A stretch of DNA of 63,702 nt, counting the filler, from Hausera hauseri (taxonomy: Eukaryota): assembly GCA_046269625.1 (NCBI GenBank). It is 12 parts of 12 records of this genome, joined end to end, with 100 filler letters (N's around TTAATTAATTAA, not from the genome) between each part and the next. Parts side by side here need not be neighbours in the genome. Positions count along the whole stretch, not along the records: positions 44,593 to 49,304 come from JBJURY010465022.1; 11 more parts are not named here. One strand, 5' to 3'. The first letter of the stretch is position 1; the number at the start of each line of letters is the position of its first letter. The position numbers were made by a program, and so were the translations under genes. This document shows, piece by piece, positions 3,878 to 60,259 of the stretch. The notes under the pieces are model-generated. The model was not told the origin of the DNA. It saw nothing but the letters and a program-made list of their open reading frames with translations, and searched no databases.

Positions 3878-4289
3878 TGGTACATCTTTCTTTTCACATT
3901 CATAGGTCAGTAGGACTTCTCCGGTTACCCGTCCGAAAACGCCTTCTTTCATTGGAATTATTGGTGATGCTAATTCCGGATTAGCATATATTAAAGCCAG
4001 TTTAGTTCGCATGACTTCCAAGTCTAATTTGCAGTCATTTGTTATCATTTTGTGATATAACTCGGCTATTCCAGTTTGTCCTTTATAGTAGAAATAGTCA
4101 TCTCTGTTTTTCAAATAATCCTCAATTCGAATGTCTTGAGACTCGAACTTGAACGTCCTGGCGCTGATTTCCGTCTTAGCTACAAAGAATGCTTCATAAT
4201 TGATGGCATAAATTATGACATCGCATCTTGTTAGTACATCTTCACAAATTTTAATCCATGAGTGTCAGAAATCAGTAAAGTGTGGACTG
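3878..4289 (-). mobile_element. Fragment of the family-A chuvirus-like env glycoprotein, fused in frame to unrelated sequence at ~3878
   Basis: KNRDDYFYYKGQTGIAELYHKMITNDCKLDLEVMRTKLALIYANPELASPIIPMKEGVFGRVTGEVLLTYECEKKDVP is nearly identical to the ORF at 46341-47324; similarity ends abruptly after DVP. Confidence 0.92.
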
Positions 4290-9512: not shown

Positions 9513-9658
9513 TATAAACAATGACGGTAAGTATAGGACAGTTCGGCGATATGGGTGCATAGTTTTCATCTATCTGTCTAGGTTTACCGAATCTTTCATT
9601 TACGCTGCGTTCTAACTGTTGTAATACAAGCAAAACCGGCACCATCGATGACAACACA

Positions 9659-10021: not shown

Positions 10022-10058
<37 letters not shown>

Positions 10059-23990: not shown

Positions 23991-24815
23991 GATAGCATTC
24001 TAGGATCATTTGTGACTGAAGTAACAACTCCATGTGCAGATGAGGTCGTAGGTGACACATTGAGAGACAATTTATATGAATCTAAGGCCGAATTTAAAAA
24101 ATTATCATTATTAAATTCGTTCATTGGAGACTGTTGGGAACCATGTAACCAATTAGTAATTGATTGGAATTGGTTATTAAAAATGCCATTACCAAATGTG
24201 GATGCATTGCTAGGAAACGACTGATCTTGACTTAACGAGATATTAGATATAGAGCAAATATTAGTCTTAGATATATATTCGGGATTTATTTCTTTTTCTT
24301 TTGCATTATCTTTTATAATTTTCAGCAAATGTGAATATATTTGGGGTGCCTCGTCGCTTTTGAATTCAGAGTACTTTAATTTAGAATCATATTTCGATAC
24401 ACCTTTTTCCTGAACATAGTTTAAATCTATGCGTTTATTTAACTTTCGAGTTTTCAAAATGCCGGCTGCAAGTTCCCGGGACATACCTGATAGGTCAATT
24501 GTTTCATTAGTATTACTTGGGCCTCCTGTAAACCATTCAGGTTTCGAGTCACTCAAATTGACATCGTTCGTATCTTTGTCACATCCATTTCGTGATTTTG
24601 ATTGATAAGAATAATACTCAACTGGTGAATTTCGATTACGATTAAATTCATATGACACATCCTCTTCGTACCCGTATCTTTGTTTAGAATTGTAATAATG
24701 GGAATGTCCCGGACCGTAGGAATTGTGACGCTTAGAACCGTCAGTATACCAAAAATATTTATAATCACCTCGCAACCGCTTTCTGTATCTTTCATTGTAA
24801 AAATGTTGACAGCTT
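23991..24815 (-). pseudogene. EIF4ENIF1: Fragment of eIF4E-transporter (4E-T/Cup-like) including the Cup-homology motif
   Basis: [20 protein letters not shown] at ~24485-24545 (cf. EPEWFSAGPTSQSETIELTG), preceded by an R/Y/D-rich region; boundaries approximate. Confidence 0.7.
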
Positions 24816-26733: not shown

Positions 26734-27079
26734 AGAAAATTACGATAATCACAAAAAAGGTTAATCCAAATAAATATAATCCCACTTCTGACACCAGTGT
26801 CGTTTTCACGTATTTGAATTAATTCCACAAATGGTACGATAAAATTCCAAAAAAAGAACGAATTTAGAATAAAATTCCAATCACGTATGAATTCCAAAAA
26901 GGGCTAACTGTATAACTTTTTATTAGTTACAATTAACAATTAATGATTATTTTCAAAACATCAATTTCTTTTTAAAACAACATATATACATGATTGTCTA
27001 TATCTATATATATCATTAGCCAGTTTCCGTACAATTTGTGCGTTTTCGAAATTTCTTCCGTACTTGGATTGTCTATTTA

Positions 27080-27191
27080 CTGACAATTGTAATTTCATTC
27101 CAATAATAAAATATTCTTCGGCAACGTTGAAAGTCCATTCCCTGACAATTATAATTTCATTCCAATGATAAAATATTCTTCGGCCACGTTG
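27080..27191. repeat. Direct repeat, 2 copies of ~50 bp (period ~62)
   Basis: ctgacaattgtaatttcattccaataataaaatattcttcggcaacgttg and ctgacaattataatttcattccaatgataaaatattcttcggccacgttg. Confidence 0.85.
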
Positions 27192-28108
27192 TGATCCGTA
27201 CTGACAGATAACAGAAAAGAGCGTTTTTATCCAATTTGAAAATTCTCAATAGTCAAACNNNNNNNNNNNNNNNNNNNNNNNNNNNNNNNNNNNNNNNNNN
27301 NNTTAATTAATTAANNNNNNNNNNNNNNNNNNNNNNNNNNNNNNNNNNNNNNNNNNNNCAGAACCTGTGTCAATTAAAACGTAAACGTCCCAATCTTCGA
27401 TACTGATTTTTGACGAAGGGCCTTACTTCTATTACAGTTACGTAACAATTTGATGCAATCTTCGGGCGCTTAATCGTCGATATTTTATGGCCGTTTATTC
27501 TGATTTCTGAGGATGTTACTATGTTTTCAGTTAATTGTTTCAGTTCTCCGTTGTGGTATAATTCATTGCTTACAATGTTTGAATCTTCTGATTCGTGAGC
27601 ACTGATTGGCAGTTTTTGGTTATTTAAGTGTAGTTTTGTATTTCGAAACGTTTGCATTCTTAGATTTCCTCAGACTGTTGGTGTAGTTTCTATATTTTGG
27701 GGTATTTTTGGGGAGTATATTGCTATGATCATTTACCGACTGTCGGCGGCGAGATGCGGGATTTTCTCTATTACCGTTCATTTTCCGTAGAGCTCTATTG
27801 TTTTGTTCCTTCGGAAGGGTCTTCAAAACTAAATGGTTTCCTATAGATTTCTATCTGGTACGAAGTCATCGATCGTTTTTCGCAATCTTCGTATACAGTC
27901 GCAGTAGGAGGCAATATTGGCAATAGTTCTTTTATAACGGGGTACGCGTTGTGCCGATTTAATCCGGAAACGGCTTCTATTCCCTTAGGCTCGTCATCAT
28001 CTGAACTATTTTTTATATCTTTGAGTTAAGAAGTTTACGTCCATATAGAAATATAGGTTTCCTTCGCCTTACTATTATGATAGCTAATATGTCGCTCTAC
28101 GTTCGTTT

Positions 28109-29890
28109 TCACCTGCTTTCTTCATAAGCTTTTAAAATTTTTCCAAGCGGCGTTATAATTGCAGTCAAAATTTTACATGAAAATCCAGTTAACGTAAATA
28201 TCTCGTAATCATTTATTACTGCTTGAATTAAGGCCTTGATTAATTGTACTAGAAAATAGATCGCTAAAAATACACATGCTGCCTGTCCAAAAATTAAAAA
28301 TCTTCCCAAATTTTGTACAGTATTTCTGTAGTTACTCGTTGATAGTGGTTTAGAACACGTAATGATTCCTATTTTGCTTGGTAGCGTGTATCGTCTACTA
28401 CTGCACCCATGGATCGATTAAGTTCATGCGTGCGCTGACGTGGAAAAGCGACAAATTGTCTGAAGGCTTCAACTTCCTTCGGTCTGTAAATATCTTTCGA
28501 CGAAATATCTTGAAATTTGTCATCCGTTATCCCTTTTACAAGATTAGTTCCTGTTAATTTGTTAGGGGTGACTGTTATGCCTGCATTTGGTAAACTTACC
28601 CAATCCGTTTCACTACGTCTGAACATTGGTTCTACTAAACCTGCTTTACATTCTTTTAAAATTGTTGGCTGAGTTGCGTTGGCTAACAAAACTCTCGTAA
28701 ATGGCATGGCTAATCGAGGCATTGTTCGAGGTACAAAACTGACATTTCCTGTATAGGACGGCATCTGTGATTCGGCCGAAAATTCCTTCTTATTGGAATT
28801 ATCGATTATACTAACTCAGGATTGGCATAAATAAAAGTCAATTTTGTTCGCATAATTTCCATGTCTAATTTACAATTGTTCGTTATCATCTTGTGGTATA
28901 GTTTGCTTATTTCAACTTGTCCTTTGTAGTAGAAATAATCGTCTCTATTTTTCAAGTAATCTTCAATTCGAATGTCCTGTGCCTCTTTAATTTGTAAGTT
29001 CTTCATTTATTTCCATTTCTGCGACGAAAAATGCCTCATAGTTCGTGGCAAACATCACTACTTCGCAATGTGAGAGTATTTCTTTATGAATTTTTATCCA
29101 TGAAGATCGGAGATTAGTATGGTCGGTATAGAGTGTTCTACCACGTCTTCGCGTGTCCTTGTATTACTATCCAGCTTATTCACAGTGTTTACCAGTAGTC
29201 TCGTTGAATTTTAGTTCCTTGATTTTAATTAAATTACAGTCTCTTCTAGAGGGAGGTTCCCATATTATAACTGAGCTTCTAAAAGCACAAGTTCCACCCT
29301 ATAGATGATATTTTTGGTTTTTGGTATACAATTTGGTAACGCTATGAAACATCACTTTATGTGCTTGCATTTCAGTTTCGTAGAAATCTACAACTATTAC
29401 GTTTGATTCTATTCCTTTGCCAATGTCATACACTGCGTCATTACAGTTTACATTATGCATATCTAGTTTCCCGACTGCCACTTTATATGCTCTGATTATT
29501 TTACCTTGTTGCATTTTAAGTTCCATACCATCTCACTGTAGTCTACCTGTTTCTCTAGCTTGTTTACAATGCTGGTGTTCTAGATTCATGAGAATTGGTG
29601 GAATTGATGGTTTTGTTATTGATGAATGTCTGTGAATTAGTCCACAGTGGAAAATACTGCGGGATCGTTGCAACATACATTCTATTCCATCTAGTGATAT
29701 TAATTATCGTTGTTGGTATAGGAAGTAATTTTTCTCTTTTGTCTCTAATCTGTGCGGTCTAGCGTCTTCACACATCTCTAGGTCAGTTAAGGAATATTTC
29801 TGACCGACTTTAAATTCATCACAATCATAGACAGTAACAGCACTTATTTGTTTTATTAGCTTCATCAAGGTGAGTATATTAATTAGCCAT
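28109..29890 (-). pseudogene. Chuvirus-like envelope glycoprotein (family A, copy 1)
   Basis: Internal signal WLINILTLMKLIKQISA|VTVYDC..YSLTDLEMC, IFHCGLIHRHSS, NNCKLD, IYRPKEVEAFRQFVAFP, TM GRFLIFGQAACVFLAIYFLVQLIK; stops, frameshifts and an internal deletion near 28780. Confidence 0.85.
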
Positions 29891-30589
29891 TTAAATTCGT
29901 TTCTCCGGTTATTATGAACTGTTGTCGTCAGATTTTGTACCATATCTTTGAGTCTGTTATTATTACCGGAGGATGGTTTATCTTCCTCCTTTTCGAACAA
30001 TTTTGACCAATTTACTTTTCGCAGCAATTTCCTAGCAGCTTTCCATACTAAACTTATGGCCTTGCTAAACTCATTTTCTCGACTTGGGTTCGTCTTCTTA
30101 GCTAAGTTCAGCAATACTTTCCTTAATTTTTCTATTGTATTCTCTCGTCGGTTAAGGTGCTTTTTGATAATTTAAAACGAGAATTTCTCATCGTTCTAGC
30201 TGCATTATATGTCGCTTTCTCTTTATAGTCTAACACGTCACCACGGAGGCTGGCGTAGTTCACGATGCATATTAAATTTTTTATCAATTCGACTAATTCT
30301 TCATTATCCGCATTGCAAGTCGGTATCGAGGTTTGTCTTAATTATCTAATCAAGTCTCCATTGTAATCAGTTTCTTCGCGTATTTTCCTAGGTCAACCAA
30401 TTGGGCGCTTCTGTGTTACAGTAGTTGGTACGATTTAACTCTGTGTCATTAATTTTTATCACATTGTTCCTTGTCCTCATCTGTTCGCAAGTACCTAAAG
30501 TACATTGCAACATCTCGTACTCCCATGATCTGTCCTACACATTGTTCAGTTTTGGCCTTGCGTGTGGCTTCTTTAGTTTGTTCGTTAGC

Positions 30590-30820
30590 GTTTACAGCCA
30601 CTATTCGGTTTGTTTCGTCGGGTATCATCCCAATGTCTATTAATTGCTCTAGTTCATCTAAGATTCTGCCTCTAAAATAGAATCTATAGTTTAGTTCATT
30701 TCTACCACTATTGTTTAGGAACCATTCCTTTACGTCTCTCACAAGTGAACACGTTGTAAATTCGCATTCTTTTTCGTCCATCCACTCAGACGACATCTCC
30801 ACTCTTAATGTCACCTGAGG
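30590..30820 (-). other. Ubiquitin-like domain in the retroelement polyprotein (copy 1)
   Basis: LRVEM...EFTTCSLVRDVKEWF..NSG...YRFYFRGRILDELEQLIDIGM...RIVAV aligns by eye with ubiquitin TIENVKAKIQDKEG...[21 protein letters not shown]. Confidence 0.65.
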
Positions 30821-32791
30821 TTTAGCCCTTAAGAATTTAGCGTATTTTTTATTAAAAGCTTTGGCACAGCGCTATAAATTAATTTTTTACTCGATAATTT
30901 AGTTAGAGAAGGAATAAGTTGTCTTAGCCTATTTTTAGTATTACTTACGTTAATTAGTTCGATGAAATCCTTGTCAGTTAGTGCTGAATCCAGAAGCATA
31001 TCCATATTGAATCTCTGACTCTGGGTACATTTCTGTTTCACATAGGCGTACCGGAGTTTTCGGGTTTTCGACAACTATCGCATCAAAATACGCATCCCAT
31101 TCTACATCATTCTGGTTTTGGGAAGTCTATTGTCGATGGGAATGTCTGGTGGTTGGATTCTATTGGCGTTTTGTACCATTTCTCTTATTTCACGTAATTT
31201 CTGTTGCATCTCGGCCATTCGTGATGTTCGGAAGCAGAGTCCGTTACCGGAAGTCTGATATAACAAGGTTAACAAGTAGCCACAATCATCTGCTTGAATA
31301 AATCTTTGTTGATAATTAGTTAGCTCGAACGTTATTTCTCGTTGACATCTCTGTATGAATTCTGATTTATTTCTGATTCTGTCAGAGCATATTTGTTTCT
31401 GTACGGATCCAATTCTCTTGTTAGTTCCTCTATTTCGGAGTTTCTTTGGTTGGAGCGAATTTGGGTTTACTGAGCGTGACGTATCTGATTCTGAAATTGT
31501 CCCAATTTTTCGTCGTCAATTTCGGCTNNNNNNNNNNTCTACTAATTGCAACGTTAACTTACGCATCTTGAAAATTCTGGAGTCTGGGTCAGTTTCGTCA
31601 ATAGTCTCTTCACGAACCCGATTTCCTCAGAAGTAAGTTTGTGATCTTCGGTTATTTCCATGAGTTCGGTATGCCATTTTTATCTGACCCTTTTATCCGT
31701 TTATTGGGATACCGTATTAATTTCAAAACTCATATTGTCAGTTCTTAATCTGGACAAATATCTAATAGTTTTATTTCCTAGATTGAAATTTCGTTCACAG
31801 GTTCAGGCCATTTTTTCGATTAGTTGGCTATGATAGGCTTCGTCAGTATCGTTTTCCCTAATGTTTTATAAGCATCCTTTAATCGTCATCTGGGTCTTTT
31901 ATAAAACTCAATCGTGCTTACGTAGCCAACTTCATCCTTGTACTCGTCGAATTCTAAAATACAAGTTTTTATTATGTCTTGAGTTTTTTCATTGTAAACA
32001 TTATTCGGTTTCTGAAATACAGATTTATGATCGTTTATCGTTTTCAGTCTGGATACGTGTCTCCAGGTTTTCGTATCGTTCGGTTGCGGTAGAAGCAACT
32101 TTAATCATTTCCATTATGGGAGGAATGTCTATCGGGTTTATACCATCTTGTTCATAAATCGGCTTTCCTCTGAGTCGATTAAGCATTGCAGACCTAATTC
32201 TGCGCATTACGTGCTCTAAATTACGTTTTACTCTTTTCAGCTTCGGATTTGCTTCTAGTATGGTCAACAATTTCTCAGCTTTCTCCACTTTTACAACGAC
32301 ATTATCTTTGTTTTTACTCCATGTTTCTGAAAATTCAACTCACTCGTGACTGTATCGAGTGATTGTCAAATGGCCTGCCATTTCCACTCACGCTCCGCTG
32401 AACACCCATACAGAAATACGCGTCACTTGTTACCTGACACGCTGCTGAAATTATACCGCATTTTCTCCTAGTCCAGGCCTTACAATTCCCTGACAGGGCA
32501 TGGTCCACACAATGGAAGCATCTCCCTAGAGGAGTGCAGGAAAGGCTTTCACTTTAAACTCTTTAACAGAATGCAAACTGTGAACTCTGTCCGTTCGGTG
32601 ATTTCGTTTGTCTAAAAATGAGATTACACGTTTTCTGCTCTAAATCTGACCCGAGGAATAATTTTGCTTGTGATTTTCTTTTCTTTTTTTTNNNNNNNNN
32701 NNNNNNNNNNNNNNNNNNNNNNNNNNNNNNNNNNNTTAATTAATTAANNNNNNNNNNNNNNNNNNNNNNNNNNNNNNNNNNNNNNNNNNNN

Positions 32792-34261: not shown

Positions 34262-36960
34262 TTGTAATACATATGAATTTGTACATATTCCATCGTCTAT
34301 AATTATTCGTTTATTATCATATTTACTGAGGCTGACCTTTTATATCTGGACTGTTGCTACTGTATGAGCCTGAGATCGGACAGCTTACATTGTGTGCAAC
34401 ATGCATTGTTCTTCATGTAACGGCTTCATAAAATCACCAAATTGTATGTTTTTTAATACAGCACGCTGTACACCCTTTGCACGTTTTTAATAATACCACC
34501 ATCAATCTCCAGCGCATACATTTTCGGTCGAAGGCCAACAAACCGTGTGGTAATAGCACCGTTTACTTCATCTTTAAATATTCCAAGGACTTTTTGTTTT
34601 GTGTTGAATAATTTGGATGGTCCATCGGATAATCATTCGTGTTCATAAATGAAGCCATTTCTCGAAACTCCTCACATATGTCCGATGACTGGATTTTATA
34701 CATGAAGGAGTCTGTGTCCATGTACATCAACTGAAGTCGATTCAGTCCGAACTTCGGTAGCATTACGTTGTAGTGAAATTCATACATGAGTAATTTACTA
34801 ATGTCCAAAATGCACATCCTGATATATATTGGTTCATTAAATACCTGTTGGGTTTCTTCCAAATGGATACTGATGATATTTTCAGAATAAATTTAAGAAT
34901 TCAGGAGATTAGTCTTGGCAATTAGGTTTTTTGTCCTTTTCCAATCATGCACCAGTTATATGTGCTGCCTATTTCCGATATTCTCCATGGTTTTTCCAAA
35001 TACAGAATAATTGTACAACTTAAATTGATCCTTTTCGAAATTTTTTTTGTCTCGTGTTCGTTAATCTTTATTGAACTGAATGTATGGCCGTAATTACGTG
35101 GACTGACTCAATTTTATTTTTCGATTAATATTCGTAATTTTTAATCAATATTTGATTGCCTGTTGGAAAAATTGATGCAATACTACATATTTCTGTCGAC
35201 CAACGAGATGGGAAATTAATTTTTTAATTTTGTTGCTTGTGCTTTCCCGTGGTTTCAATGTTACCGGTAGAAATGGTAACTCATCATGTTGTTCATGTAA
35301 AGTTTCAGGGTAATCAATATCCACTTTAAATACGTCACCAGTTGATGCAGTTTGACTTATATTGAGTATGTCTTCATCCATGTTTCCGGTCCATGTCATC
35401 AATTTAAAATCTCCGTACGGAAAATAATGCAACATTGCCCAACCGTACAAATTATTTGCACCTAAATATGTAATATACACATCCGGCTGGTTTTCTTCGT
35501 GTTTATCATACATATACTTGTTATTCGCAGCTGAATATCGATGTACGACTTGACATAGACATCCTCTTATTCAGTTTTCATCCATTAACAGCATATCGTA
35601 ATCCTTTAGTATTTGCAGCTTAATCTTGATCATCTTTAGCATTGCGCTACGTGCCATTCCTGGTGCTGTGAAATGATAGGCTGGATCGACTTTGTGTGGA
35701 ACCATTGTTACTGCACGAAAACTTTCAAACACATCGGTCAATATTAAAACATCGGTCTTCAAATATATGTCACTGTATTAACCGAGGTTTTCACAATTAA
35801 ATGCTTCCAATACTTTTTGTGCATGGCAGTAATCTTCATCTGACATATTTGATTGACAGAAGGAACTGAAAAATGCCTCTTTCTGCGGCAGTACTCGTTC
35901 TTCCAATTTTCTCCAGTCGGTTATGTATTCGTATGGGAATATACCTTTCCGTTTAACCAAACTGTACAATCGATCATCATCAAAGTGCCACATGGTTTCC
36001 GTAAATGCATCTGGCGGTAGATTTCGTGCCAGTTAATCGAGACTACTGCATATGAACTTAAAATTATCGGCGAACCGCAATTCAATATAACCCGCATGTT
36101 TCACAATCGTTATGTACCTTTCTTGATTATGGGGGATTACAATTATACGACCTTGTAATTCACCGAGTTCTCGAATAAAAAAGTGCGAATCGTATCCATA
36201 TAAATTGTGAAATATCACTGGGATAAATCGTACCCGTTTACATACCAAATTGCAATTGTATTTGAACTCGGTATTTTCCGGTAAAGTGGTCATGACTATG
36301 TGCCTTGTAATTTTTTTCCGTAAATGTATTTTCACACACGTAACACACTGTTGCTTGGTTGTGATGTTCTCTTTCTTTCTTCCGTAATACTTCCACAGGT
36401 TTATTAGCCATTATTTCTACATTCACGGCAATTTCCTCCAACTTCTTTATGAATACTGCTGCTGCATTCGGTCCTCGGTGCAGAAACGGTTCTTCGCTGT
36501 AACCTTTTGCAAACATACAAAACCATGTTGGTTCATGTATGTGTTATCATTGTAGAAGACTGACCGTTTTGTGGATTACATGTATGCACTGGTTGTAACT
36601 TGGCTTAAAAATCACAGTAAATTACAATGAGAACACGTATTGTTTTTTCGTATTCTTTAAATTCTGTTTTTTTGAATAGTACAGCTTATGCTGTTCCAAT
36701 TTCGTTTTACCGTAGTAGTGCATTAAACATCGTTTGCATATAAGATAAGCGGCTTTTATTTCTGTATATATGTGCCTACCAATCTGCTGCAATGAGAAAT
36801 GTATACAAAATGACTTTTATCTTCATCACTTATCAACAACAAATCTCGGTGATCATCATTTTCTTCTTCACAGATTTTCAAAGGATATATTTTCCTTGTT
36901 TCCTCTTCTATACCGAATACATTGATTGACATATTATTATTGACCTTTTCAAAAATTTTG
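34262..36960 (-). pseudogene. Protein-primed family-B DNA polymerase (pPolB) with endonuclease-VII-like insert, decayed
   Basis: FEKVNNNMSINVFG, CYVC..HDHFTGKYR, IPVIFHNLYGYDSHF, RKGIFPYEY, KTDVLILTDVFESFR, ANNLYGWAM..PYGDF, SVFGKTMEN, ILDISKLLMYEFHY, YMDTDS, FVGLRPKMYA. Confidence 0.95.
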
Positions 36961-39129
36961 AGTAAATCTTCATTCTCCTGATAGTAGATATTTCCTCTAT
37001 CCATTTTATATTTATTTTTGCTCCCCTCTTTGTTTAGACTATTACGAATTTTACGAACTTCTTCATCCTTTGCTTGTTCTTTGGCTATAGCTTCGTGTGT
37101 AATTGGCATGGTTAATAATATGTACATCTCTTCGTTGACTTCTGCATTGTGTACTTCATATATCATAATCTGAATTAAATAAATCATTTTGTAGTCTTGT
37201 GTTTTACATTTCCTTGATTTTATTTGTTCAATGTTTGAATAATCATACTTATTAGTTGATCGGTATCCTTTGTGCATTTATTTCGTATTGATTTGGGTAC
37301 ATCTAGATGAACTTTCTGCGAATAATATTCCTTTAGGTCCTGCATATCATCGTAATCAAAGTTGATATGGTCGTTATGGTCTTGATAGATGTCACTTTCC
37401 TGAAGTCTTGATAGAAAGTCTGCGTTAGCGTTTGCTTTTCCTTATCGGTATTTTATTGAAATTTCTAAGTCTAGGATTTCTGCAGCCCATTTCATTAATT
37501 TTCGGCTGGTATCTCGTTGTTTCCTTAACCATTGTAAAGGTTTCTGATCAGTGTATTGGATTAATTCTCGTCCAGTTACATAATATCTGAAATATCGTAA
37601 AGCATATACTATCGCGTAACATTCTCGCTCGATTGTTGACTATCTACTTTGTGTTTCGCTTCATGTTTTACTGAGACATGCTATTGTTCCTTCACGTGGT
37701 GTGTCAGGAACCGATTGTCCTAAGACTGCACCTATAGCGTAACAGATGGCATCGGTCATTATTATATAGGGATATTTGGGATCAGGAAATTGTAGTATTG
37801 GAGGTGAAGTAAGAACTTGTTTTAAAATCTCAAATGCTCTCTGATGTGTTTCTTCAGAATTTTATGTTGTTCTTTTCTTAGTTAATTTTACTAGTGGTTT
37901 GACTATACGTGCAAAATTATATACGAATTTTCTATAGTAGTTAGCCATTCCTAACAGTCTTTGCAATTCTTTGAGACATTTAGGCGATCTTAATTTCTTT
38001 AGTTTCTCTACATTTATAGGATCAGGTTGAATTCCTTTACTTGACATTACGTCCGAGGAAAATGAGAGTATTTTTAGCAAATTCACATTTTTTCAACTTA
38101 ATTTTTAAATGAGCTTGTTTCAGTCTCTCAAATACTTGTGAAATGTCATTTAAGTGCTGTTCGAAGTTTTCGGAAAATATTATAACGTTATCTATGTACA
38201 CCATACAACAAGTTAGCCCTTGCAATACAAACTTCATACATCTTTGGAATGTAGCGGGTCCTCCTGTCAAACCAAAAGGCATAGCATTAAATTCCCATAA
38301 TCCATTTCCAGTAGAAAAGCTGTTTTTTGTTTATCATCTTCGGCAACTTCAACTTGCCAAAATCCGCATTGTAAATCTAGGGTGGCGAATATTGTGTCAT
38401 TTCGTAAGGCCGTAAGCATCTCATCTATCTTTGGTAATGGATAATTATCTTTCTTTGTGACATTATTTAGTACCCTAAAATCTACACAGAATCTTTGTGC
38501 TCCATCCTTTTTCTGCACTAATACTACTGGAAATGTCCATGGTGAGAAACTTTGTCTGATAATACCGTGTTTAATTATTTGTGCTATTTGTTTATCGCAT
38601 TCTTGTTTCTTGACTTCAGCCATTCAATACGGGTCTTGTTTAATAGGATTTGTGTTCTCTGCGATTCTATGATATTGAATAACGTTAGTTCTACCGATGT
38701 CATTTTCATTAATATCTATAATATCTCAATATTTGTAAAATAGTTGTAGTAATTGTTTCAATTGATATGAGGTTAATTCGTCTTCTTTAAATTTGATATT
38801 TTCATCTTCTACTAAGAACGTTGCTGCACATATTTTAACTGGTTGTAACCGTCCTAAGTTGAGGTTTTGCCGTAATCTAATTGCCTTTTATTGATACTTT
38901 CTATTGGCAATTCTAAACAGTGTACTCCTTTTGGCACAAATAAGGGATATTGTAGAATCTTATATTTTTTGTTATTATGTAGATTTGGTTCGAACATGCA
39001 GGTTTGCTTGTGGTATTGCGGTGGTATTGTGACCATCACCACTACTCGTTGCTGGGGTTTGATAATAACGTCATGAGTCAAGGTCATGTTGATTTCCTCA
39101 ATCGGCAAATTGGTCATCGTGTATTTAAG

Positions 39130-39440
39130 GGTTTGGTTGATAGGTCCATTGAGAGTCCTGAATTTTGTGATAATACGTCCATTCCTATTACTAAGGGTAC
39201 TGACAATATTTTATCCTCTATCACAAATAAGGTGGTAGTGTGAAAATTATCATCAATTCTTATTCTGATGCTTATTTTTCCTAAAAATTGTACTTAAGTG
39301 GAGTTTGCGGCTGCTATTACTATATCGCTTGGCATGATTGCTCTTTTTTGATCGTCAGTTACGTATAAATATCTAATCATTGATACAGAGCATAATGTTT
39401 AATCCGTTAAATCGTACTCGTACATAGGGGTTATTTCCTG
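39130..39440 (-). pseudogene. Retroviral-type aspartic protease (family B), active-site motif deleted or frameshifted
   Basis: NPYVRVRFNGLNIM[..]SMI...IAAANS...FLGKISIRIRI...LFVIE...LVIGMDVL; its N-terminus shares ORF 39373-39849 with the env tail. Confidence 0.7.
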
Positions 39441-39849
39441 TTGTCAAAGTGGCTTGGGTCATAAAAATGAATTTTGTATTATTTCGTCGAATGTCCGTTT
39501 TATTATATTGTCGGAGTATATTTGGTGGATAAGCAGAACTTGGTAGGCGTGTATATTTATCTAAGTCTCTTGCCATCAGAAGAACGTGCATGGACGTGAC
39601 ATTTATTTCTCCATAATCAAAATATTCTGGGAATTCATCAATAGGTTCGGGCTTATAGTATGTTGGTGCTTCTGGCTCAAAGTGTTGTCTAGCTTTCTTT
39701 CTTAATAATTTATATTTAACCAGATATTCTTCCACCGTTAACTTAATAAAAGCTTGTAACTGTTGCTCTAGTTCTGGGGCTAAACGAAGTTCTTTTATTA
39801 ATTTGTCAAGTTCCTTTGCACGCCAGTACATTAATACTGATTGAGCCAT

Positions 39850-41680
39850 TGAAGGGAAACATCACAGCATAATTTGGCATGTACAACCACGTACTTTCTT
39901 TATATTTCTGGCAGCTCCTGTATGTCTTAATATAACCACTGTGGTAGTATTTATAACATATATACCGAAAACTCTAGGCATAACTTGACCAAAAATAAGA
40001 AATTCATTCAAGAAATCGTAAAGAACCTTTTTAGCTGTTCTTTCTAAATAGTCGCTTGGTAGTAGCATTCAATAATTAGGCACACCATCTGATCCTTTTG
40101 TAACAGTATATACAAATTCTGTAATGACTTTTTCTCGGATGTTCTGAAATAATACCTGTTTTCTTACCGCTTCCAGGTAAGAATATAATCCACTGGTGGG
40201 AAGTTCTCTACTTACTTTAAATTTTATACCTTTATCCCATGGTAATAATCCAATTGTCTGTGGTATGTTCATCATAGTTGGTTGGTGTGTTTTGGTCCAT
40301 CTTCCATCACTGAGCTTGAAGGCTAGATAGAAGTCTTTGTAACACGGTGCAGAGGTGATATTGTTGGGTAAGAACAATTTTCGAGCGATAGGATCCACAT
40401 ATCCGATTTGTATTATATTTTTCTCAATATACTGAACCATTAAATCGTTTGTGCAATTTTCTCTTGTAATTGTTATTGGGGTTACTTCAGTTGGCGGGCA
40501 TTGGTATACGTGAAGTATCTCGCCTTGTACTCTACCAAGTGTTCTGGGACGATATCCCATAATTATGGTTATATGCTCCGGGAATTCTCTGGCTAATATT
40601 ATGTCATGCTGATTCAATTTTTGAGTAATTTTGCAGTTTCTCAACACCATCATGTTTTATAACTCAACTAAATCCATTTTTGCGGTGTGATAAATATAAT
40701 CTCTCTTGTATTCGTATATAAGTGCCACTTTATGTCTTCAGTTGGTAGCTTTCCAGTATCCGCAAGGGTTACTCTCGTTACAAATAATTCTTCATAAGAT
40801 GTATAATAAATGGCATTTAATCCGAAAGTCGATATTGCTCATTTGCGCGACAACACAATTCCGTCTTTATCGCTGGATGGCATTAGGACTTTCAAGGAAG
40901 TTGTTTGCTTTAAGGTTCTTGGAGTAGGTAAACTTATGTTATGGTTATGTACAGGTTTTTATATTCGTCAACATAATATAAATCACCTTGTATTTTGTAC
41001 ATAGATACGTGTTTAAGGAAATATACTGGGCATATCACTGATGTTTTTCCCAGACTAGCGTAGATTCTCCTAATGCACACACTCCATCAGAATATGTACA
41101 AGATGGTGCAGTTAACATTTTTCCTGTAATTGCATCGAAATTTATTTTATATTCCTTTATGGTGACGGTGAAATCTTCTATTTGTACTACAGCCGATTCT
41201 TTTTGTCCATTTATCATCATACTTTCTTCTTCTTACGCTCTACCATATCCGGGCCATATTGGTGAACAAACTCGTTTTCCAATGCATGTCTACACGGGGT
41301 GTTGTAAACCTACGTGAATTGAATCCGTGTTTTTTCTACAATTTTCAGCAGCAATTGTTACGGGTTTCGGTAGTCCTTGTGGAATAATTACAGAATTCTA
41401 CGAATTATGACTACAGATATAAGCAAATACTACCTTATTAACTTGGCATTCCTTTACTTGCACTTGTTGATAACTGATTCTTTTATACAAATTATAATTG
41501 TAAGGACATTCCTTCTTTAATGATATCGGGTTTGCATTCTGACATTTACCTATATCTACCAGTGAAAGTCTGGCTATTATTTCGGGATTGGAACAATCGA
41601 AACTTCTAACGCTTTCGTAATTTTCATGCTGCTCAATGCTATTAAGTATAATAGAAAATCAATGATTTGTACCATCCAGT
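39850..41680 (-). pseudogene. Chuvirus-like envelope glycoprotein (family B)
   Basis: Signal FLLYLIALSSMKITKA|LEV(F)DCSNPEIIARLSLVDIGKC after correcting one frameshift; CTYSDGVC; RNCKI; GRVQGEILHVYQCPPTEV; CTNDLMV; SGLYS; TM FLIFGQV..FGIYVI. Confidence 0.82.
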
Positions 41681-44592
41681 CTAAGATATTAGTGTCTTTG
41701 GGATATATTAATGTAGTGGGGTTAAATTTCTTGAGAATTTCATCCAAACCACCTAGTTTCGTTACCCAATCTTTTGTTAGTTTGTCCATGTGATGGGCTA
41801 AATCTCTTACTATGTGGTGTAGCTTGGCATCGACCTTGTTTGATTATTTTAAACTAACCATTATGCATCCCAATGCCATCAACAATCGGTTTTGATCACA
41901 TTCCTTTAATAGTCGTGTCAATACTTTATTTAAACTTCCTTTCAGCTTATATTTGTGTAATAACCGGGTAATTTGTGATGAGAAATTTCTAGCAGTCTCG
42001 ATTTTGGATTGTAATGGAATTATGGTAATTATTGGTATCTTTTTGAGTTGGTTTGTGTTAGCTTTCTTGATTAAATGTTCCAAAAGTTTATGAGTGGTCA
42101 ATGTTACTTTGGTACATTTGTTTCGCCCTGGTTTGATGTTCCTGGGACAGAATTTTTTATTTGCTCATTTTCATCATCGCTAATAGTCAATCGTTGGAAA
42201 TTGTCATATAATATATCTTCTAATGTTTTCCTCTTTTCCTTACGATTTCGTGACAAAGATCTCTTCTTCCTTTGTTTTTCTGGATTTTCTTCATTGGGAT
42301 TTTCTTCGTCATCACTTATTGGATTAAAATCGCATTTTTGTGCTCTTCCGCCTTTTTTCTTAATGCCAAATTCCATGGTAATCTGATGAATCTTTCCGGT
42401 AAGCTGTCAGTAATCTACAACATAATAATTGTCAACGGTTAACCTGCCATAAACATCGGTTTTCGCTATTATATTGGTTTCTAGATCTAATTCATCTAAT
42501 ACCTTCCTTCGTAGATCCGTAAATTTAGTGAACATTCCTGCTGTTACTTCGATTACGTGTACCCGCTTATTGCTTTTGATTTCTATACTTATAATATATG
42601 ACTTTTTTCGTCTGTTTTCGTCTTAGGTCTCTTCCTAGAGTTTTAATAATTTTCTTGCTGCTGAAAAACAGAATATATCATCCTTTGTAAGTGGCAGGAG
42701 TAATGCTGCACATTCTATTGGACTAGCTGGTGGTAGTGACTCATATTGTCGTAAATCATTCCATACTTCGTTAGGTGCTGAATCAGCCATTTGTAATTTA
42801 TCTTTAATTATTTCAGTTACTGATTTTTGAGGTTCTCTGTATAGTATAGATCCTGGTGGAATGTTCACTTCCGGGATGTCCTTTGGCTTTTCGATCGTTA
42901 ATATTGTAGCATCGGGGTACTAAATCATATCCGGTATAAGTATGAGTTCATCATCTACTAAGATTTCAAATGCTTAATCTTCATCGACAACTTGTGGTTC
43001 CATTTTGGATGTACTTGGCTGTATTGGATCCCAAATACTGTAAAATAATGTCGGTTTCTCGAGTGGAACCTTAGATTGGGGAAGTGGTGCGACAAATCTA
43101 TCATTATAACGTTCTATCCATTCGCCAGTCGGTCTTGTTCTGACGAGTTCGTGTGAATATTCGTTCGAATCCATATCCGGGTGTCTTTGGGCAATTGGTT
43201 CGATTTCTGGAATTGCTCTTGCTTCATCAATTTTCTCGAGTTTTTGTACTGCTGGAAAAGCTATTCGTAATGTTTCCTGGCTTTCTATTATCTATGGTAT
43301 ATTGTATTCTAATCGCACAGTCTTTAGGTATTCACCTGGACATCTTTGTGCCATAATTTCTGAGTTATGACCGTGGTATAGGTCTAAACATTTGTAGGTT
43401 CTGTTAGTTTGTTCCAAATCGTAGATGGTGGTTAAATTTACTGGATTTATTTTCAATGTATTTAATAGTTCTGGCAACTGGCGTCCGATGATTATCTTCC
43501 CTGGTAAATATTTATTCATAAATTCACTTACTGACTCTTGTCGTTGAGAATTAGATCGTCTACTGTATTCGGTGTACTTCGTAGTGTCTGGTATATTTGG
43601 ATACACATGAATATTGTGAATTATTTTTCCTTCCAAATTTTTGGTAGCAGCTTGAGTAAGTCCTTTCTGGTCTCATTTGGTTGTACATCTACCTGTAATG
43701 ATTATTTCTCTGTCGTGCGTTACAGTTTCATCCGCCGTTAATACGGGTGTTTCCTTAAGTAACTGTATTAAGTATATCGAATAGTTGTTCAAAGGTTAAA
43801 TCTGACAGTCTCCTTCGTATGGATAATTAAGAAGTATCTTAGTTTCTTTTGAAACAATTACCGTTTTATTGTTGATTTGTAACCGGGCTTCTCTCTGATT
43901 AGTAATTATAACAAATGGCAGGTCATTTCTTTTAATCTGAATATCAGTCTTTTTATATAAATTTTATCAATACCTTCTATACAAATTGATCCTCGTTTGG
44001 CGATATCTGCAAACTCTATTCGGTTAGATTTCTTGTCGTTGAATATTTTGTATCAATTTTGAACTATATCTATATTCATACGCCGTAATGTTGCTTCTGG
44101 AATCAAAATGGTGTTGCATGTTATCTCTTGTTCGGGATATCTGTCTTCTTTAAACCAGGGTCTTCTTGGAAAAATATAATATGGAGTTCCTTGACGGTTA
44201 AGTTTAATTTTCTATTCTTGACGTAAGTTGATTAATCGCTGTGTTAATGTACCTTCTCTTTTCCATTGATCATTTGGTAGATTGAAGTTCTGATCTGTAC
44301 TAAACGTACCAAAGATATCTGTTTCCTTTAAATGCAGTTGTTTAAATAACCATGGTAATCTATTCCAACGATAAGTTTTCCACAGAGTAGCTGTCTAAGG
44401 TTCTTGGAACATTTTTCTTGCTCTATGTGTACCTTTTCTAACTCAATTATAAAATTACCTTTGATGTTTTCTATTCCTATTCAATTAATTTCNNNNNNNN
44501 NNNNNNNNNNNNNNNNNNNNNNNNNNNNNNNNNNNNTTAATTAATTAANNNNNNNNNNNNNNNNNNNNNNNNNNNNNNNNNNNNNNNNNNNN

Positions 44593-47500
44593 GCGCCAAA
44601 ACTTTTAATCAAAGAATATGCCGAATTTTTAAGGACAAGGCCCGAAGAAGTAATTAGAGTAAAAATAACGGCGGACTGGATGGATGAAAAGGAACAAGAA
44701 TTCACTACACACTCCTCTGTAAAGGATGTATTACTGTGGATAAAGAATAATGGATACGCCCATGAACTAAACTATAGACTCTATTTTAGAGGAAGGATAC
44801 TGGACGAATCGGAGTTACTGATAGAAGTTTGAATTATTCCAGACGAGATAAATCGATTAGTGGTGACCATAGCTATCGACGAGACAAACGAAGAGGCTAT
44901 AAGGAAAGCTAAAGCCGAGCAGCAACTAGGACAAATAATAGGAGTCCGAGATGCGGTAGTATATTTCGAGTACTTACAAACAGGTGAAGATAATGAGCAA
45001 TACGATATGTATTTAGTACCCCTTACTGATAACACACCTATCGTAACAAAACAGAAACGTCCGATCGGTAGACCGCGGAGGGTACGAGAGGAGAACGACT
45101 ACAATGGAGACCTGATTAAAGAATTGAGGCAAATGTTCATACCAACCTTCAGTGCAGATAATGAGGAACTGAACGAACTAATGAAGGATTTGATACGAAT
45201 AGTAAGCCACTCCAACCCTGACGGTGATATGTTAAATAAGAAAGAGAAGGCCATATTTAATGCAGCCAAGGCCATGAAAGGCCTCCGGTGCAAAGTAACC
45301 AAGAGTACCTTAAGTGATGAAACGATAATTGAGAAAATTATGGTAGAAAATACCATGGAGAAACTGAGGAAGGTGTTGCTGTATCTGGCCATCAAAATTA
45401 ACCCGAATAGAGAAAACTAATTTAACAAAGCAACTAGCTTAGCAAGGAAGGCCGCTAGGAAACTGCCTCGAGAAGTGGACTAGACGAAGTTATTTGAAAA
45501 AGAAGAAGGTCATCAAGCTAGACTTTCCTTCGATAGCAATAGATTCGGAGACCTGCTACGAAATCTAACTGGGAATTACAGAGGAAATGAATCGAATTGG
45601 TTAATAAACTTTCTGGTCATGACGATATTGATAAAACAAATGGGTGCAGTCACGGTATATGATTGTGACAAATTTAGACTTGGATAAAAGTACTCACTAA
45701 TGGACTTGGAAATGTGAGGACGCGAGACCACACAAATTAGAAACAAAAAAAGAGTTACGTATTATACCAACAACGTAAACTAATTGCATTGGATGGGGTG
45801 GAATGTATGTTGCGACGATCTCTCAGCATCTTTCATTGTGGGCTGATACATGGACACTCATCAATAATCAAACCGACGACTCCACCAATTCCGATTAATT
45901 TTGAACGACAACATTGTAAGCAAGCAAGAGAGACGGGAAGAATAAAGTGGGATGGCATGAAACTAGAGATACAAAAAGAGAAAATAGTCAGAGTATGCAA
46001 AATAGCAGTCGGAAGGCTAGACATGCACACGGGACATTGCCAAGGTGCAGAATACGATACCGGAAAGGGATTAGAGCCGAACGTCGTAGTAGTAGATTTT
46101 TATGAAACTAAAATGCGAATGCAGAAAGTGGTGTTCCTTAGTGTTACTAAGCTTTACACCGAGAACCACAAATGCCATATTCAGGATGGCACGTGCCCAT
46201 TCCGGAATTCCGTAGTAATTTGTGAACCTCCAGCCAAGACTGATTGTAATTTTATTAGAATTAAAGAACTGAAATTCAACGAGACAACGGGAAAACGATA
46301 GATAAGTAGCCCGGAAACTAACTCTAAAACGCGAGAGAATGTGACCGAAAAATCCACACCTACAATACTGATTTCTGACGATCATGGATTAAAATTTATA
46401 AAGAAAGACATGCTCTCTAGATGCGACGTCGTAATGTATGCTACCAATTACAAAGCATTTTTTGTAGCCGAGACAGAAATAAACGCCAGAACGTTCAAAC
46501 TCGAGACTCAGGACATCCGGATTAAATACTATTTGAAGAACAGAGATGACTATTTCTACTATAAGAAACAAGCCGGAATAGCCAAATTATACCGTAAAAT
46601 GATAACAAACGACTGTAAATTGGATTTGGAAATCATGAGAACTAAATTAGCTCTAATATATGCAAATCCCGAGTTGGCATCACCAATAATTCCGATGAAG
46701 GAAGGTATTTTTGGACGAGTAACCGAAGAAGTATTATTGACGTATGAGTGCGAAAAGAAAGACGTACCAATTGACGTGGAAGAAAAGAGGTGTATACAAG
46801 AACTTCCAGTGATATATCAGGACGTACCGAGATTAGTAACACCAATTACCAGAGTGCTGTTGGCAAACGCCACTTTACCGACAATTTTGAGAGATTGCAA
46901 AACGACTTTAGGAGAGCCAATGTTCAGACGAAGTGAGACTAATTGGGTGATTCTACCAAACGGTAATATTATCGCACCACCTACCAAGTTGACAGGAACA
47001 AACCTGATAAAAGAAATAACCGATGATAAGTTCCAGGATACAGCCGCAAAAGGTATTTATCGACCAAAAGTAGTAGAGGCATTTAGACAATTTCTTGCTT
47101 TTCCCTGCCAACGTACCCATGAATTAAACAGAGCGATGTATACAATATTAGAGGATTCGCGCTGTCAGTTAAAATGGGAGTCATTGCTTGGTGTTGGCTA
47201 TTATAAAAAGGTAACTACAGAAATTTTATACAAAATTTGGGGAAGATTCCTAATATTCGGACAAGCTGCATCAGGATTTCTAGCGATATACTTTCTAATT
47301 CAATTGGTAAAAGCTATAATTTAGTCAATCATAAATGGATATGAAATATTTACCTTTACATGATTTTCTTGCAAAATTTTAACGGCTATTATCATTCCTT
47401 TTGGCAAATTTTTAAAGGATTATGAAGAGAATAAATGGAAAACAAATGTAGAACGACACGTTGGCTATCACAATAGGAAACGTAAAAGACGCCTAATTGA

Positions 47501-49304
47501 TTACAGGCAAAGATTCTTAGATAGTAAGACACGAAGAAATAATTCAGATGATGACGAGCCTAATGGAGGAGACGTCCTCTTCAGGTCAAACAGATACAAA
47601 AATTACTCCGTTATAAAACTACCATTACCCATATTGCCGCCAACGGCGCCTATATATGAAGATTGTGAGAAACAATCTATGAGTTCGTGCCAGATAGACC
47701 TCTATTGGAAGCCGTTTAGTTTAGAGAATCCTTACGAAGGAGCAAAACGTTATGGGATACTGCGTAAGATCCACGAAACAGAGAAAACCTCGATTCCACA
47801 CCATAGATTAGCAGTCGACGACCACGGTATAATTTACTCGCCCAGAATACCTAAGCCGAACAAAACTCAATCGATATTTACTCGACGCCATGAAGCACAA
47901 AATCGTCGAACCTCAGATGTTCAACCGACGGTTAGAAACCAGAGAGTGGAAAAGGCGAATGAAACAAGTAATGCACTATACCCAATTGGGGAGTTAAGAC
48001 AGTTGGTCGAGCAGCCAGTTGGGACCACTGAAGTTACCATTAACGGTTACAAGGTGTCTACCATACGACAATCCAAGATAGCACCAAGCTATTACGATAC
48101 AGGGATCAAAGGCAGGCCCTTTGCAAAGATTCAATTGGAAGACTGGGAGGTTTATGCACTAATAGATACAGGATTTGAAATATCACTGATAAAATATAAT
48201 TCGATACCACAATTCTTACGAAAACAATTATATCCACCTCCTACGACGGACCCAGGAAGCATTGGAGCTTTCGCACAGTCATCAAAACCGGATAAATTAC
48301 TGTTAAGTAAAATATTGGATTGCATGGAGCCCAAGAATCAAAAAGAATTGAGGCATTGGCTAGGATTATGTGGATATTACGCCACTTACGTGCCAGAAAA
48401 TGCAAAGATAAATGCACCCTTGTATCGCTTATTAAAGAAAGGGATCAAATGGAAATGGACCGATGTTGAACAAAAGGCTTTTGATGAAGTGAAGAAAATT
48501 CTAACTAGCGAACCTGTTTTAAGATATCCCGATTTCAACCTGCCGTGCATAATCAAAACAAACGCCAGTAAGGAAGGTATCGGATATGAACTGGCCCAAA
48601 AACAAGAAAACGAGGATTTGGAACACCCGATTGCATACGGAGGACGTTCTCTGAAGTCAGCAAAAAAGAACTATTCTGTTTCGGAACTAGAAACATTTGC
48701 ATTAAAAGAAGCACTGCGGCATTTTAATGTATATGTCTACGTACAAAAGATCATTATCGTTACGGATCATAAGGCAGCTACGACTTTGAAAGGTAAAGCA
48801 AATAACCCAACTTGTAGACTCAACAGATAGATTGAGGAGATATCGCGATATAATATTGAGTTCCAATACAAGCCCGGAAGTAAACATGTCGACGCTGATG
48901 CGTTATCGAGACTTAAAACGAAAACAAGCGCAGTTATAGTAATGAGAAAAGCTCACGTTGAAGACTTAGTAGAGAGACAACGGATCCTCACACTGGATAA
49001 GACACTAAAAATTTCTCTCGAACAAAGAAAAGACCGGGTTATACAACAGAGTATCGAGTTTATAGAGACCAACGTAACACCCAAGGGTCATCAGTTACGG
49101 AAACACTTACGACGATATGGTCACAAATACTGCGTCGTTGGAGATTTAAACCGCGAAAATGTGTTATATTACGAACGAAAGGAACGGAAACTAGTTGTCA
49201 TACCAAAAGGATTACGAACGGAAGTACTCATGGCCGAACATGATTTTTATTTAGCTGGACATATGTCGTGAAAAAAGACATTAGAAAGGATTTTAAAAAA
49301 GTAT
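44593..49304 (+). mobile_element. Family-A env-bearing Gypsy-like element, copy 2: UBL, AT-hook-like motif, env, tail, PR, (RT core deleted), RNaseH, start of integrase
   Basis: ALIDTG protease; WLGLCGYYATYV RT thumb; KTNASKEGIG, YSVSELETFAL, TDHKA, HVDADALSR RNaseH; VIPKGLRTEVLMAEHDFYLAGH integrase Zn-finger. Confidence 0.92.
45598..47430 (+). pseudogene. Chuvirus-like envelope glycoprotein (family A, copy 2)
   Basis: AVTVYDC, IFHCGLIHGHSS, HCKQARETG, CHIQDGTC, NDCKLD, GRVTEEVLLTYEC, CIQELPVIY..LVTPITRVL, GIYRPKVVEAFRQFLAFP, WGRFLIFGQAASGFLAIYFLIQLVK: same motif order as chuvirus/Jingchuvirales glycoproteins (YDC..LSLLD.G.C, YYCG.HSH, GEV...KC, CY.ELPV, GIY....LR..I.FP). Confidence 0.88.
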
Positions 49305-59402: not shown

Positions 59403-60252
59403 CAGGCCTTGGCCAGCAGATCCATCACCCAGGGCAGACCCTGCTTCTTGCGGCTGACAAAGCCCGGGTGGTAGCTGGACTCGGCCGGTACTTTGGCGTG
59501 CTCGGTAAAGTAGATACGGCTGGCAGCCGCAGTCAGGTCAGTCACCATCAACACGAAGAAGTCGAGCCCTTCACTCGTCACGCGCTGGGCCATCTCCTGC
59601 TGCAGGGCTGGCAGGTGCTCGGCCAGCTGCTGCTCGCTGCCCACTTCGATCTGGCTCATGATGAAGTTCAGACCTTCGGCCTGGAATGCTTTCTCATCCT
59701 GCTGCAGCAGTTGAGCCGGAGTCAGGCCGCTCAGGTCGGTTTTCGCCATCAGCAACTGTTGGCCGAATTCGGCCAGCGATACTTCTGCCAGCGGTGCCAG
59801 ACGCTCACAAGCGATCTTGTCCTGCTCGGTGGTGGTCGGTGAGGTGAGACAGAGGGTGTCGCTCATGATGGCACCCAGCATTAGGCGAGCCTGGCTGCGG
59901 GTCACGGTACCTTGCTGGCTCAGCAGATCGAAGGCGATGGTGCAGGTGCAGCCGACGGCCCGGATCCAGGCATCCAGCGGAGATTGGGTGACCAGAGTGC
60001 CGAGACGGTGGTGATCCACCAGGCCCAGTACATTGGCTTGTGCCAGTGTGGCAGGGCCCTGTTCCAGATCACTGAAATCCACCAGCCAGACATCTTCACC
60101 GGTCAGATCTTTGGTCAGCAACTCGGGTTCGCTGACGCCAGCCTGCTCCAGAATAAAACGGGTTTCGGTGCGCAGGTCACCCAGACGCCATGGGGTGGCC
60201 TGACGGCCCTGGCCATTGAGCCAGTCGGTGATAACCAGCGCACTGCAGATAC
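59403..60252 (-). CDS. ppaC: Bacterial Mn-dependent inorganic pyrophosphatase (family II, DHH/DHHA2), lacking the first ~15 aa
   Basis: ICSALV, ETRFIL, LVDFSD, VDHHRLG, VGCTCTI, GAIMSDT..SPTTT..D, SRKKQ; GC-rich gammaproteobacterial-style codons; no lesions. Confidence 0.93.
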
Positions 60253-60259
60253 ATCCACT

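Follow-up and report, generated by a model that had tools for sequence, protein, structure and literature searches.

A decayed Ty3/gypsy retroelement from Hausera hauseri with a gB-like Env in frame upstream of protease, RNase H and integrase

Described elements with Env ahead of Pol

The giant gypsy elements of planarians (Burro/GYPSM1) carry env in frame between gag and pol (Arkhipova and Yushenova 2019, PMC6431247). According to their description, Burro has an ORF of about 4,900 aa in an internal region of up to 25 kb. Its Env matches mononegavirus-type fusion glycoproteins, and decayed copies with stops and frameshifts are known. MATH, BIR, ankyrin and dUTPase-like domains occur in addition, with a dUTPase-like spacer between protease and RT (PMC6431247). 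A study of GAG-ENV-POL elements (Chary and Hayashi, eLife, PMC13524379) lists them for flatworms, nematodes and bryozoans. It counts intact elements alone, and its nine flatworm rows are from Macrostomum, Prostheceraeus and Schmidtea. The same paper cites Sacco et al. 2022 for endogenous retroviruses of nematodes with a flipped Env/pol order. Mosquito BEL/Pao elements with a chuvirus glycoprotein have also been reported (Dezordi et al. 2020, PMC7642597). Our literature search found no paper that joins monogenean genomes with env-bearing gypsy LTR retrotransposons. The above-mentioned nematode endogenous retroviruses reportedly have a continuous gag-env-pro-pol ORF.

The locus described here belongs to a window of 63,702 nucleotides (filler included) from Hausera hauseri, in which contigs are chained by N-spacers. 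It fills one whole contig of 4712 bp (44593..49304, plus strand, N-spacers on both sides), and the domain scan identifies it as a decayed internal fragment of an env-bearing Ty3/gypsy element (copy A), probably of flatworm origin. We consider copy A, with a probability of about 85%, to be a dead, RT-deleted member of an abundant Burro-like GAG-ENV-POL Ty3/gypsy family, which has a gB-like Env in frame upstream of pol and the intact members of which are predicted to make one ER-threading polyprotein. The initial annotation knew of no description of such an X-Env-Pol arrangement. This view had to be abandoned, given the in-frame env published for Burro (PMC6431247). The layout is real but already published, and the copy A family joins a known element type.

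Judged from the published description of Burro, Burro and copy A both have Env in frame upstream of protease-RT-RNase H-integrase (with the RT core deleted in copy A). The likeness to the GAG-ENV-POL errantiviruses (PMC13524379) is one of gene order and Env type: the pol order is that of Ty3/gypsy (the RT core, deleted in copy A, is present in element D and the relatives described below), and pol is preceded by a class III Env of the HSV/gB type, which has a signal and a TM by hydropathy. The available text on these errantiviruses is silent on Env and Pol as a single ORF. The elements of Sacco et al., which have nematode hosts, likewise have Env before pol. The BEL/Pao elements (PMC7642597) share the same broad class of captured glycoprotein, but the pol of copy A is of the Ty3/gypsy type, and its Env is 5' and in frame. 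A BEL/Pao-type pol is ruled out for copy A, as Pfam assigns a gypsy-type RNase H and an H2C2 integrase, and no Pao family.

Domain order, decay and RT deletion

Copy A has the domain order ubiquitin-like domain, helical region, signal, chuvirus-type Env, TM, tail, protease, RNase H and integrase zinc finger, all on the plus strand. Env, protease, RNase H and integrase are arranged as initially annotated; the RT named in the title of that annotation is absent from copy A. The ORFs (45741-46301, 46302-47324, 47364-48830 and 48831-49271) are all in the same frame. Between 45741 and the contig end, the 1188 codons of this frame include five stops (46299, 47322, 47361, 48828 and 49269), where about 83 would be expected; the two remaining frames have 100 and 82. 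The Pfam domains are on this frame, which upholds the common frame that had been claimed: Monjiviricetes_fusion (aa 6-559, E 7.5e-50), aspartyl protease (aa 791-825, weak, E 0.038), RT_RNaseH_2 (aa 906-1006, E 3.6e-30) and Integrase_H2C2 (aa 1154-1188, E 3.5e-5). Upstream of the ectodomain and into it, the reading is broken by five stops (44830, 45418, 45481, 45685 and 45715) and shifts frame near 45712 and 45747. Copy A itself is incapable of activity.

A ubiquitin/SUMO-like domain (44653..44875, with one stop at 44830) is indicated by weak but agreeing signals. The UBX match is weak (Pfam, E 0.07), all three matches in a PDB sequence search are ubiquitin-like or SUMO-like (E 0.77-1.6), and the stop-free domain of a sister copy (copy B, see below) yields ubiquitin (0.91) and Rad60-SLD (0.90) in the Atlas. 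Burro, as described, also has such a motif upstream of Env (PF11976); the likeness relies on the weak, concordant signals in copies A and B. The helical region (45091..45510) shows coding-type divergence from copy B. Its position, directly ahead of Env, is that of the BCL2-like motif in Burro. Tests for Bcl-2 in copy A gave no support: the hhalign probability is 0.15, no score exceeds those of shuffles, a PDB sequence search has three matches, none of them Bcl-2, and the model (pLDDT 45.8) has six helices. An Atlas search with 44833-45417 gave no usable match. Gag, LTRs and target-site duplications were not seen in the window, where the contig of copy A covers the internal region. In copies A and B and in element D, Pfam gave no Gag match in the frames ahead of Env, where the contigs end, and a reading of the upstream region as Gag itself was rejected. 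An Rfam search gave 0 matches.

A hydrophobic internal signal (45595..45648, hydropathy 1.71) directly precedes the conserved YDC start of Env. A signal-like segment (hydropathy >1.6) is found in 7 of 10 relatives scanned. The Env ectodomain (45649..47252, PF24664) is of the chuvirus type, with a gB-like class III fold, and contains frameshifts (~45712, ~45747) and stops (45685, 45715, 46299). The initial annotation had described continuity from the upstream region through the signal into Env for the sister copy. This is confirmed for copy B, where an ORF (29704-30171, minus strand) runs without a stop from the upstream region via the signal into Env. Copy A is frameshifted between signal and ectodomain. 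The anticipated match to a viral fusogen was obtained: beyond the PF24664 assignment, a wide fold search (VIA) with the AlphaFold model of Env (pLDDT 72.7) has class III fusogens as all of its best 11 matches, at modest strength (best Z 8.0, with 317 residues aligned at rmsd 15.7). When the Env alignment was compared with PDB sequences, the best 60 of 213 matches were all aspartic proteases, via the protease part of the relatives. By eye, the cysteines of domain I-II and local motifs follow six Schmidtea errantivirus Env rows (PMC13524379 supplement), with domain I-II resembling the C1a rows. Scans of viral contigs with Env and with a natural relative (P0003) found no relative.

Env is followed by a TM segment and a second hydrophobic/amphipathic stretch (47253..47414, assigned by hydropathy, with stops at 47322 and 47361). 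The second stretch (hydropathy 1.76) could, if membrane-spanning, alter the predicted topology. The tail and linker (47415..48110) are stop-free, with a basic cluster near the start. Next are the N-terminal part of an aspartic protease (48111..48280, DTG motif near 48159), the RT connection region with RNase H (48285..48851, PF17919 and PF17917, stop at 48828) and the start of the integrase zinc finger (49200..49304, PF17921, stop at 49269). The integrase ends past the zinc finger because the contig stops there.

At a joint (48281..48287) that keeps the frame, about 420-450 codons are absent, covering the rest of the protease, the spacer and the RT core. The distance from DTG to the RT connection region is 38 aa in copy A, compared to 456-488 aa in all six relatives. 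Pfam found no RVT_1 match in copy A, and tblastn with the RT cores of two relatives found nothing in its contig, with matches at three other places in the window. Family contigs from sequencing run X1 have loose ends at 48281 and 48287 and diverge into other letters (22 behind 48287, 10 before 48281). With the frame kept, the family on both sides and contigs running on with other letters, this is as expected for an internal deletion. No X1 contig among those listed bridges the joint.

Sister copies and natural relatives

Copy B (27359..30865, minus strand) is on a separate contig, which ends within the protease. It is collinear with copy A from the ubiquitin-like domain to the protease (tblastn, tblastx), has its own breaks, and shares 68-72% nucleotide identity with copy A. 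Copy B has sense codons at the sites aligned with the 47322 and 47361 stops, which corroborates the attribution of these stops to decay. At 47322, all 24 X1 family contigs listed have another letter. A conserved stop between TM and protease was rejected. Between copies A and B, the third-position mismatch is 0.48-0.59 in 9 of 10 segments, compared to 0.04-0.38 at positions 1 and 2. In the same segments, dN is 0.11-0.42 and dS ranges from 1.7 to saturated; one tail segment has dS 0.59 and dN 0.27. The third-position excess is missing in 2 of 13 windows compared. Judged from the sequences, the divergence is of the coding type through signal, Env, TM, tail/linker and protease in one frame.

Fragment C (3878..4281, minus strand) is a piece of a third Env copy (81% nucleotide identity, PF24664). 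Element D (37400..44492, minus strand) is distant and decayed, with a long upstream region, Env, RT and RNase H; the RT is kept. Its upstream region is 49-71% identical to a natural protein (P0131), and Bcl-2 is absent among the six PDB matches for its equivalent of the helical region. No single copy in the window is unbroken from the upstream region to integrase. Other contigs of the window are mosaic, with an Aeromonas veronii gene (99% identity) beside a gypsy pol and with intron-free pieces of host genes. The DHH gene in the window is bacterial.

In run X1, 9765 contig pieces align on the copy A contig, 7835 of them less than 95% alike, which indicates a large, diverged family. Among the sequencing runs listed, one contains the copy A stretch (share 0.24), and no RNA run listed contains it. 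Among 152 natural stop-free proteins, 17 carry this type of Env. Env is followed by protease in one ORF in 12 of the 17 (11 by Pfam, P0029 by motif); 6 extend to RNase H and 5 to the integrase core. Together with the frame of copy A, these unbroken relatives support the proposal that X-Env-Pol is one reading frame. Gag marks precede Env in P0009, P0024 and P0086. P0003 has 2627 aa on a contig of 9084 bases, which leaves scant room for introns. P0012 has a weak Bcl-2 match at the position before Env (E 9.6e-4). The Env of copy A is about 30% identical to its closest database relatives. In a quick RNase H tree, copy A is on a long branch outside a 12-row group (support 93), which includes six natural Env-Pol proteins and element D. 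In a quick Env tree, copy A is also long-branched, and its placement lacks resolution.

Predicted processing, alternatives and meaning

We predict that Gag (presumed past the contig end) and the ubiquitin-like and helical domains would remain cytosolic. The internal signal would direct the Env ectodomain to the ER lumen, with signal peptidase cutting directly ahead of the YDC motif. The TM would stop transfer, so that tail, protease, RT, RNase H and integrase would be cytosolic and initially tethered to the Env tail, until the element's own protease would free the Pol parts. Gag, Env and Pol would be produced in equal amounts. Such membrane-threaded processing is consistent with hydropathy, and we infer that the family may be infectious.

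Equal amounts of Gag and Pol would be unusual for a retroelement. This favors a reading that accepts the single frame but has Env made chiefly from a spliced or otherwise processed sub-genomic RNA, the full membrane-threaded polyprotein being minor or unused. Cer1 of C. elegans is described as having no gag-pol stop, yet a spliced CERV mRNA (PMC10309623). We regard this reading as improbable: the coding-type divergence continues in a single frame from the signal over TM and linker to the protease, and relatives with an Env identity of about 25-38% still have the in-frame link, which suggests that the joined product is in use. Less probable still is an origin of Env and pol from two separate elements that nesting, recombination or mis-assembly brought together, the likeliest place being the protease/RNase H joint near 48281-48287. 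The mosaic contigs elsewhere in the window fit such an origin, as do the RNase H of copy A, which falls outside the group of the Env-Pol proteins, and the joint itself, which is unbridged by the X1 contigs listed and lies beyond copy B, which stops within the protease. However, the joint is in frame with the family on both sides, the X1 contigs continue differently there (22 and 10, see above), and the collinearity from Env to protease recurs in copy B, element D and 12 of the 17 natural proteins. At most, RNase H and integrase could be detached by such an event, never Env from protease.

Chuvirus glycoprotein insertions are described as frequent in invertebrate genomes, so that a host-domesticated or non-retroviral insertion might lie beside a gypsy pol by chance. 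This is extremely improbable, as there are several diverged copies, each decayed independently, the protease is in frame, and natural polyproteins have the identical order. The natural relatives and the divergence between copies A and B largely refute it.

For the preferred reading, a Burro-like GAG-ENV-POL family, a further scenario is conceivable but rather improbable. The host might be a flatworm outside the listed free-living groups (possibly a fish parasite), and the abundant family might once have been an infectious endogenous retrovirus. Pol might be packaged via the Env-tail tether after signal peptidase has severed Gag, unlike in a Gag-Pol fusion.

The gain is modest: a group that is known but has received little study acquires a divergent, abundant subfamily. 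Should the host prove to be a parasitic flatworm, the listed host range of such elements would be widened. The intact published planarian elements are better suited than the dead copy A for asking how Gag, a luminal fusogen and a cytosolic Pol arise from a single ORF, and whether the particles infect.

Copies in the window and their shared reading frame

About 12 short contigs were chained into the window by spacers of the form N44-12 bases-N44 (eleven spacers, 4290-59402); neighbours across spacers are therefore unlinked. The element under study, copy A (44593-49304, + strand), is one entire 4712-bp contig. Its sister element, copy B (27359-30865, - strand), lies on a separate contig and is 68-72% identical to it. 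Nucleotide similarity to copy A is also found in an Env fragment (fragment C, 3878-4281, - strand), while element D (about 37400-44492, - strand) is a distant relative. Fragment C has an abrupt junction at about 3878 with unrelated sequence (1-3877, - strand), one stretch of which we take to be acyl-CoA-dehydrogenase-like; Pfam gave no match there.

From 45741 to the contig end, copy A keeps a single frame with 5 stops in 1188 codons, compared with about 83 predicted from composition and with 100 and 82 in the remaining two frames. Pfam assigns to this frame Monjiviricetes_fusion (E 7.5e-50), a weak protease match, RNase H and an integrase zinc finger. The initial annotation was largely right: Env and the downstream domains share one frame, the two stops between the transmembrane region (TM) and the protease face sense codons of copy B in the alignment, and copy B has no stop from the upstream region across the signal into Env. 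At position 47322, a different letter is present in all 24 family contigs listed from X1, the sequencing run whose contigs hold the family. Upstream of the ectodomain, copy A has frameshifts near 45712 and 45747, and its upstream frame carries five stops. For every junction between the upstream region and the protease, one or both of the two copies therefore keep the frame, yet neither copy is whole.

Between the two copies, third-position mismatch is 0.48-0.59 in nine of ten segments (dN 0.11-0.42; dS from 1.7 up to saturation). In the first tail segment the pattern is less marked (dS 0.59, dN 0.27), and the third-position excess is missing in 2 of 13 sliding windows from TM to protease. Judged by these substitutions, the region was evolving as protein in copy A's frame prior to decay.

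Env fold, proposed processing and natural relatives

The AlphaFold model of Env (16-row alignment, pLDDT 72.7, pTM 0.53) has long strands, a central helix of 48 residues and a crown rich in strands. A class III, gB-like fusogen had been expected, and a fold comparison against 48,161 chains agreed: ranks 1-11 are herpesvirus gB, rhabdovirus G and thogotovirus glycoproteins, and baculovirus GP64 is at rank 13. The Z-scores themselves are modest (best match Z 8.0, rmsd 15.7, 317 aligned), so the class III call is based on the agreement of the ranks together with the Pfam match.

A single internal signal and a single TM would place the ectodomain in the ER lumen, leaving both the upstream part and Pol in the cytosol. 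Copy A has a basic cluster downstream of the TM region. A second hydrophobic stretch reaches 1.76 in copy A; as it exceeds 1.6 in only one of ten relatives, it is taken to be amphipathic and not to cross the membrane. Cleavage by signal peptidase would liberate the Env N-terminus, and the element's own protease would cut Pol from the Env tail. Env may instead be made from a spliced RNA, for which Cer1 is a single-ORF precedent (PMC10309623).

Relatives came from an HMMER search over 1.84 billion representatives; the set comprises 152 natural proteins (P handles). The best-ranked matches are Env-Pol polyproteins (P0002, E 1e-125; P0003, E 8e-121), and 17 of the 152 carry a copy A-type Env. A protease lies C-terminal to Env in 11 of these 17 (Pfam; scan run without P0062), and P0029 ends C-terminally in a protease motif. 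Six Env-bearing relatives extend to RNase H and five to the integrase core, while four stop inside or shortly past Env. The order is reversed in P0062 (pol, then Env). Gag marks occur N-terminal to Env in P0009, P0024 and P0086, and P0012 has a weak Bcl-2 match. P0003 (HBK71150.1; 9084-base contig) is labelled a hypothetical protein and assigned to a Flavobacteriaceae MAG; it is probably animal DNA within a bacterial bin. Relatives with two to four aspartic-protease motifs C-terminal to Env include P0002, P0017, P0024, P0086 and P0152, the last also having ankyrin and C2H2 domains. P0002 and P0003 have long post-integrase extensions containing more hydrophobic segments.

The missing reverse transcriptase and other sequences in the window

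The reverse transcriptase (RT) attributed to copy A by the initial annotation is absent. Only 38 residues separate the protease motif from the RT connection region, compared with 456-488 in six of six relatives, and RT core queries had no match in the contig. X1 contigs diverge at the joint, 22 continuing with other letters behind 48287 and 10 before 48281, and none of the best 8 of 1319 X1 pieces bridges 48281-48287. This pattern fits an in-frame internal deletion in copy A or, less probably, a collapse in assembly.

Other decayed pieces of gypsy pol, matching RT, RNase H or integrase, lie at 5403-7414, 60926-62933 and 9563-10222 (all + strand); no Env was seen beside them. The contig with the fragment at 60926-62933 also holds a manganese-dependent pyrophosphatase gene (59403-60295, - strand) 99% identical to Aeromonas veronii, reflecting either a chimeric assembly or inserted bacterial DNA. 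At 18969-27258 (- strand), long intron-free frames unite pieces of separate host genes: COG5, then an EIF4E-T-like and a dynein AAA_7 piece within one 728-aa ORF, and further pieces that are presumably RhoGAP/FAM13-like. Element D would be expected to carry integrase immediately after its RNase H; that place is taken by a decayed DNA polymerase B-like sequence (35000-37300, - strand; PF03175, E 0.0025), which we take to be Polinton-like and which is possibly a nested insertion.

Upstream region and placement

By Pfam, the upstream region is not Gag. For its first domain, three weak but concordant signals suggest a ubiquitin/SUMO-like fold, and tests of the helical region before the signal gave no tie to Bcl-2. 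The upstream region of element D (41589-44492, - strand) is 49-71% identical to the natural protein P0131; its about 900 residues of putative accessory domains had no convincing Pfam match, and its end segment has a W-x-GG motif common to P0006, P0012 and P0131.

A quick RNase H tree (122 rows) unites element D and the six natural Env-Pol proteins with support 93. Copy A is on a long branch beyond this group, inside a wider one (support 85). The Env tree (18 rows) did not settle copy A's place. On these placements, copy A represents a divergent subfamily.

A literature search found no paper on monogenean gypsy env elements. The nine flatworm rows in the table of the GAG-ENV-POL paper belong to genera that we take to be free-living. 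According to that paper (PMC13524379, within which Sacco et al. 2022 is cited), GAG-ENV-POL elements with a gB-type Env are known from Nematoda, Bryozoa and Platyhelminthes. The similar layout of Burro, a planarian giant gypsy element with Env in frame upstream of pol (Arkhipova and Yushenova 2019, PMC6431247), overturns the claim that an Env-before-pol single polyprotein lacks prior description. Env domain I-II of copy A agrees by eye with the six Schmidtea rows in the supplement of PMC13524379, in cysteine order and local motifs. This likeness is compatible with a flatworm host, but is no proof of one. Copy A works like Burro and is a candidate, not a firm, member of that group; the class that suits it best is that of the GAG-ENV-POL Ty3/gypsy elements with a gB-type Env. 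Its contig aligns with 9765 X1 contig pieces, 7835 of them less than 95% alike; these numbers point to a large and diverged family, although summed depth does not equal copy number.
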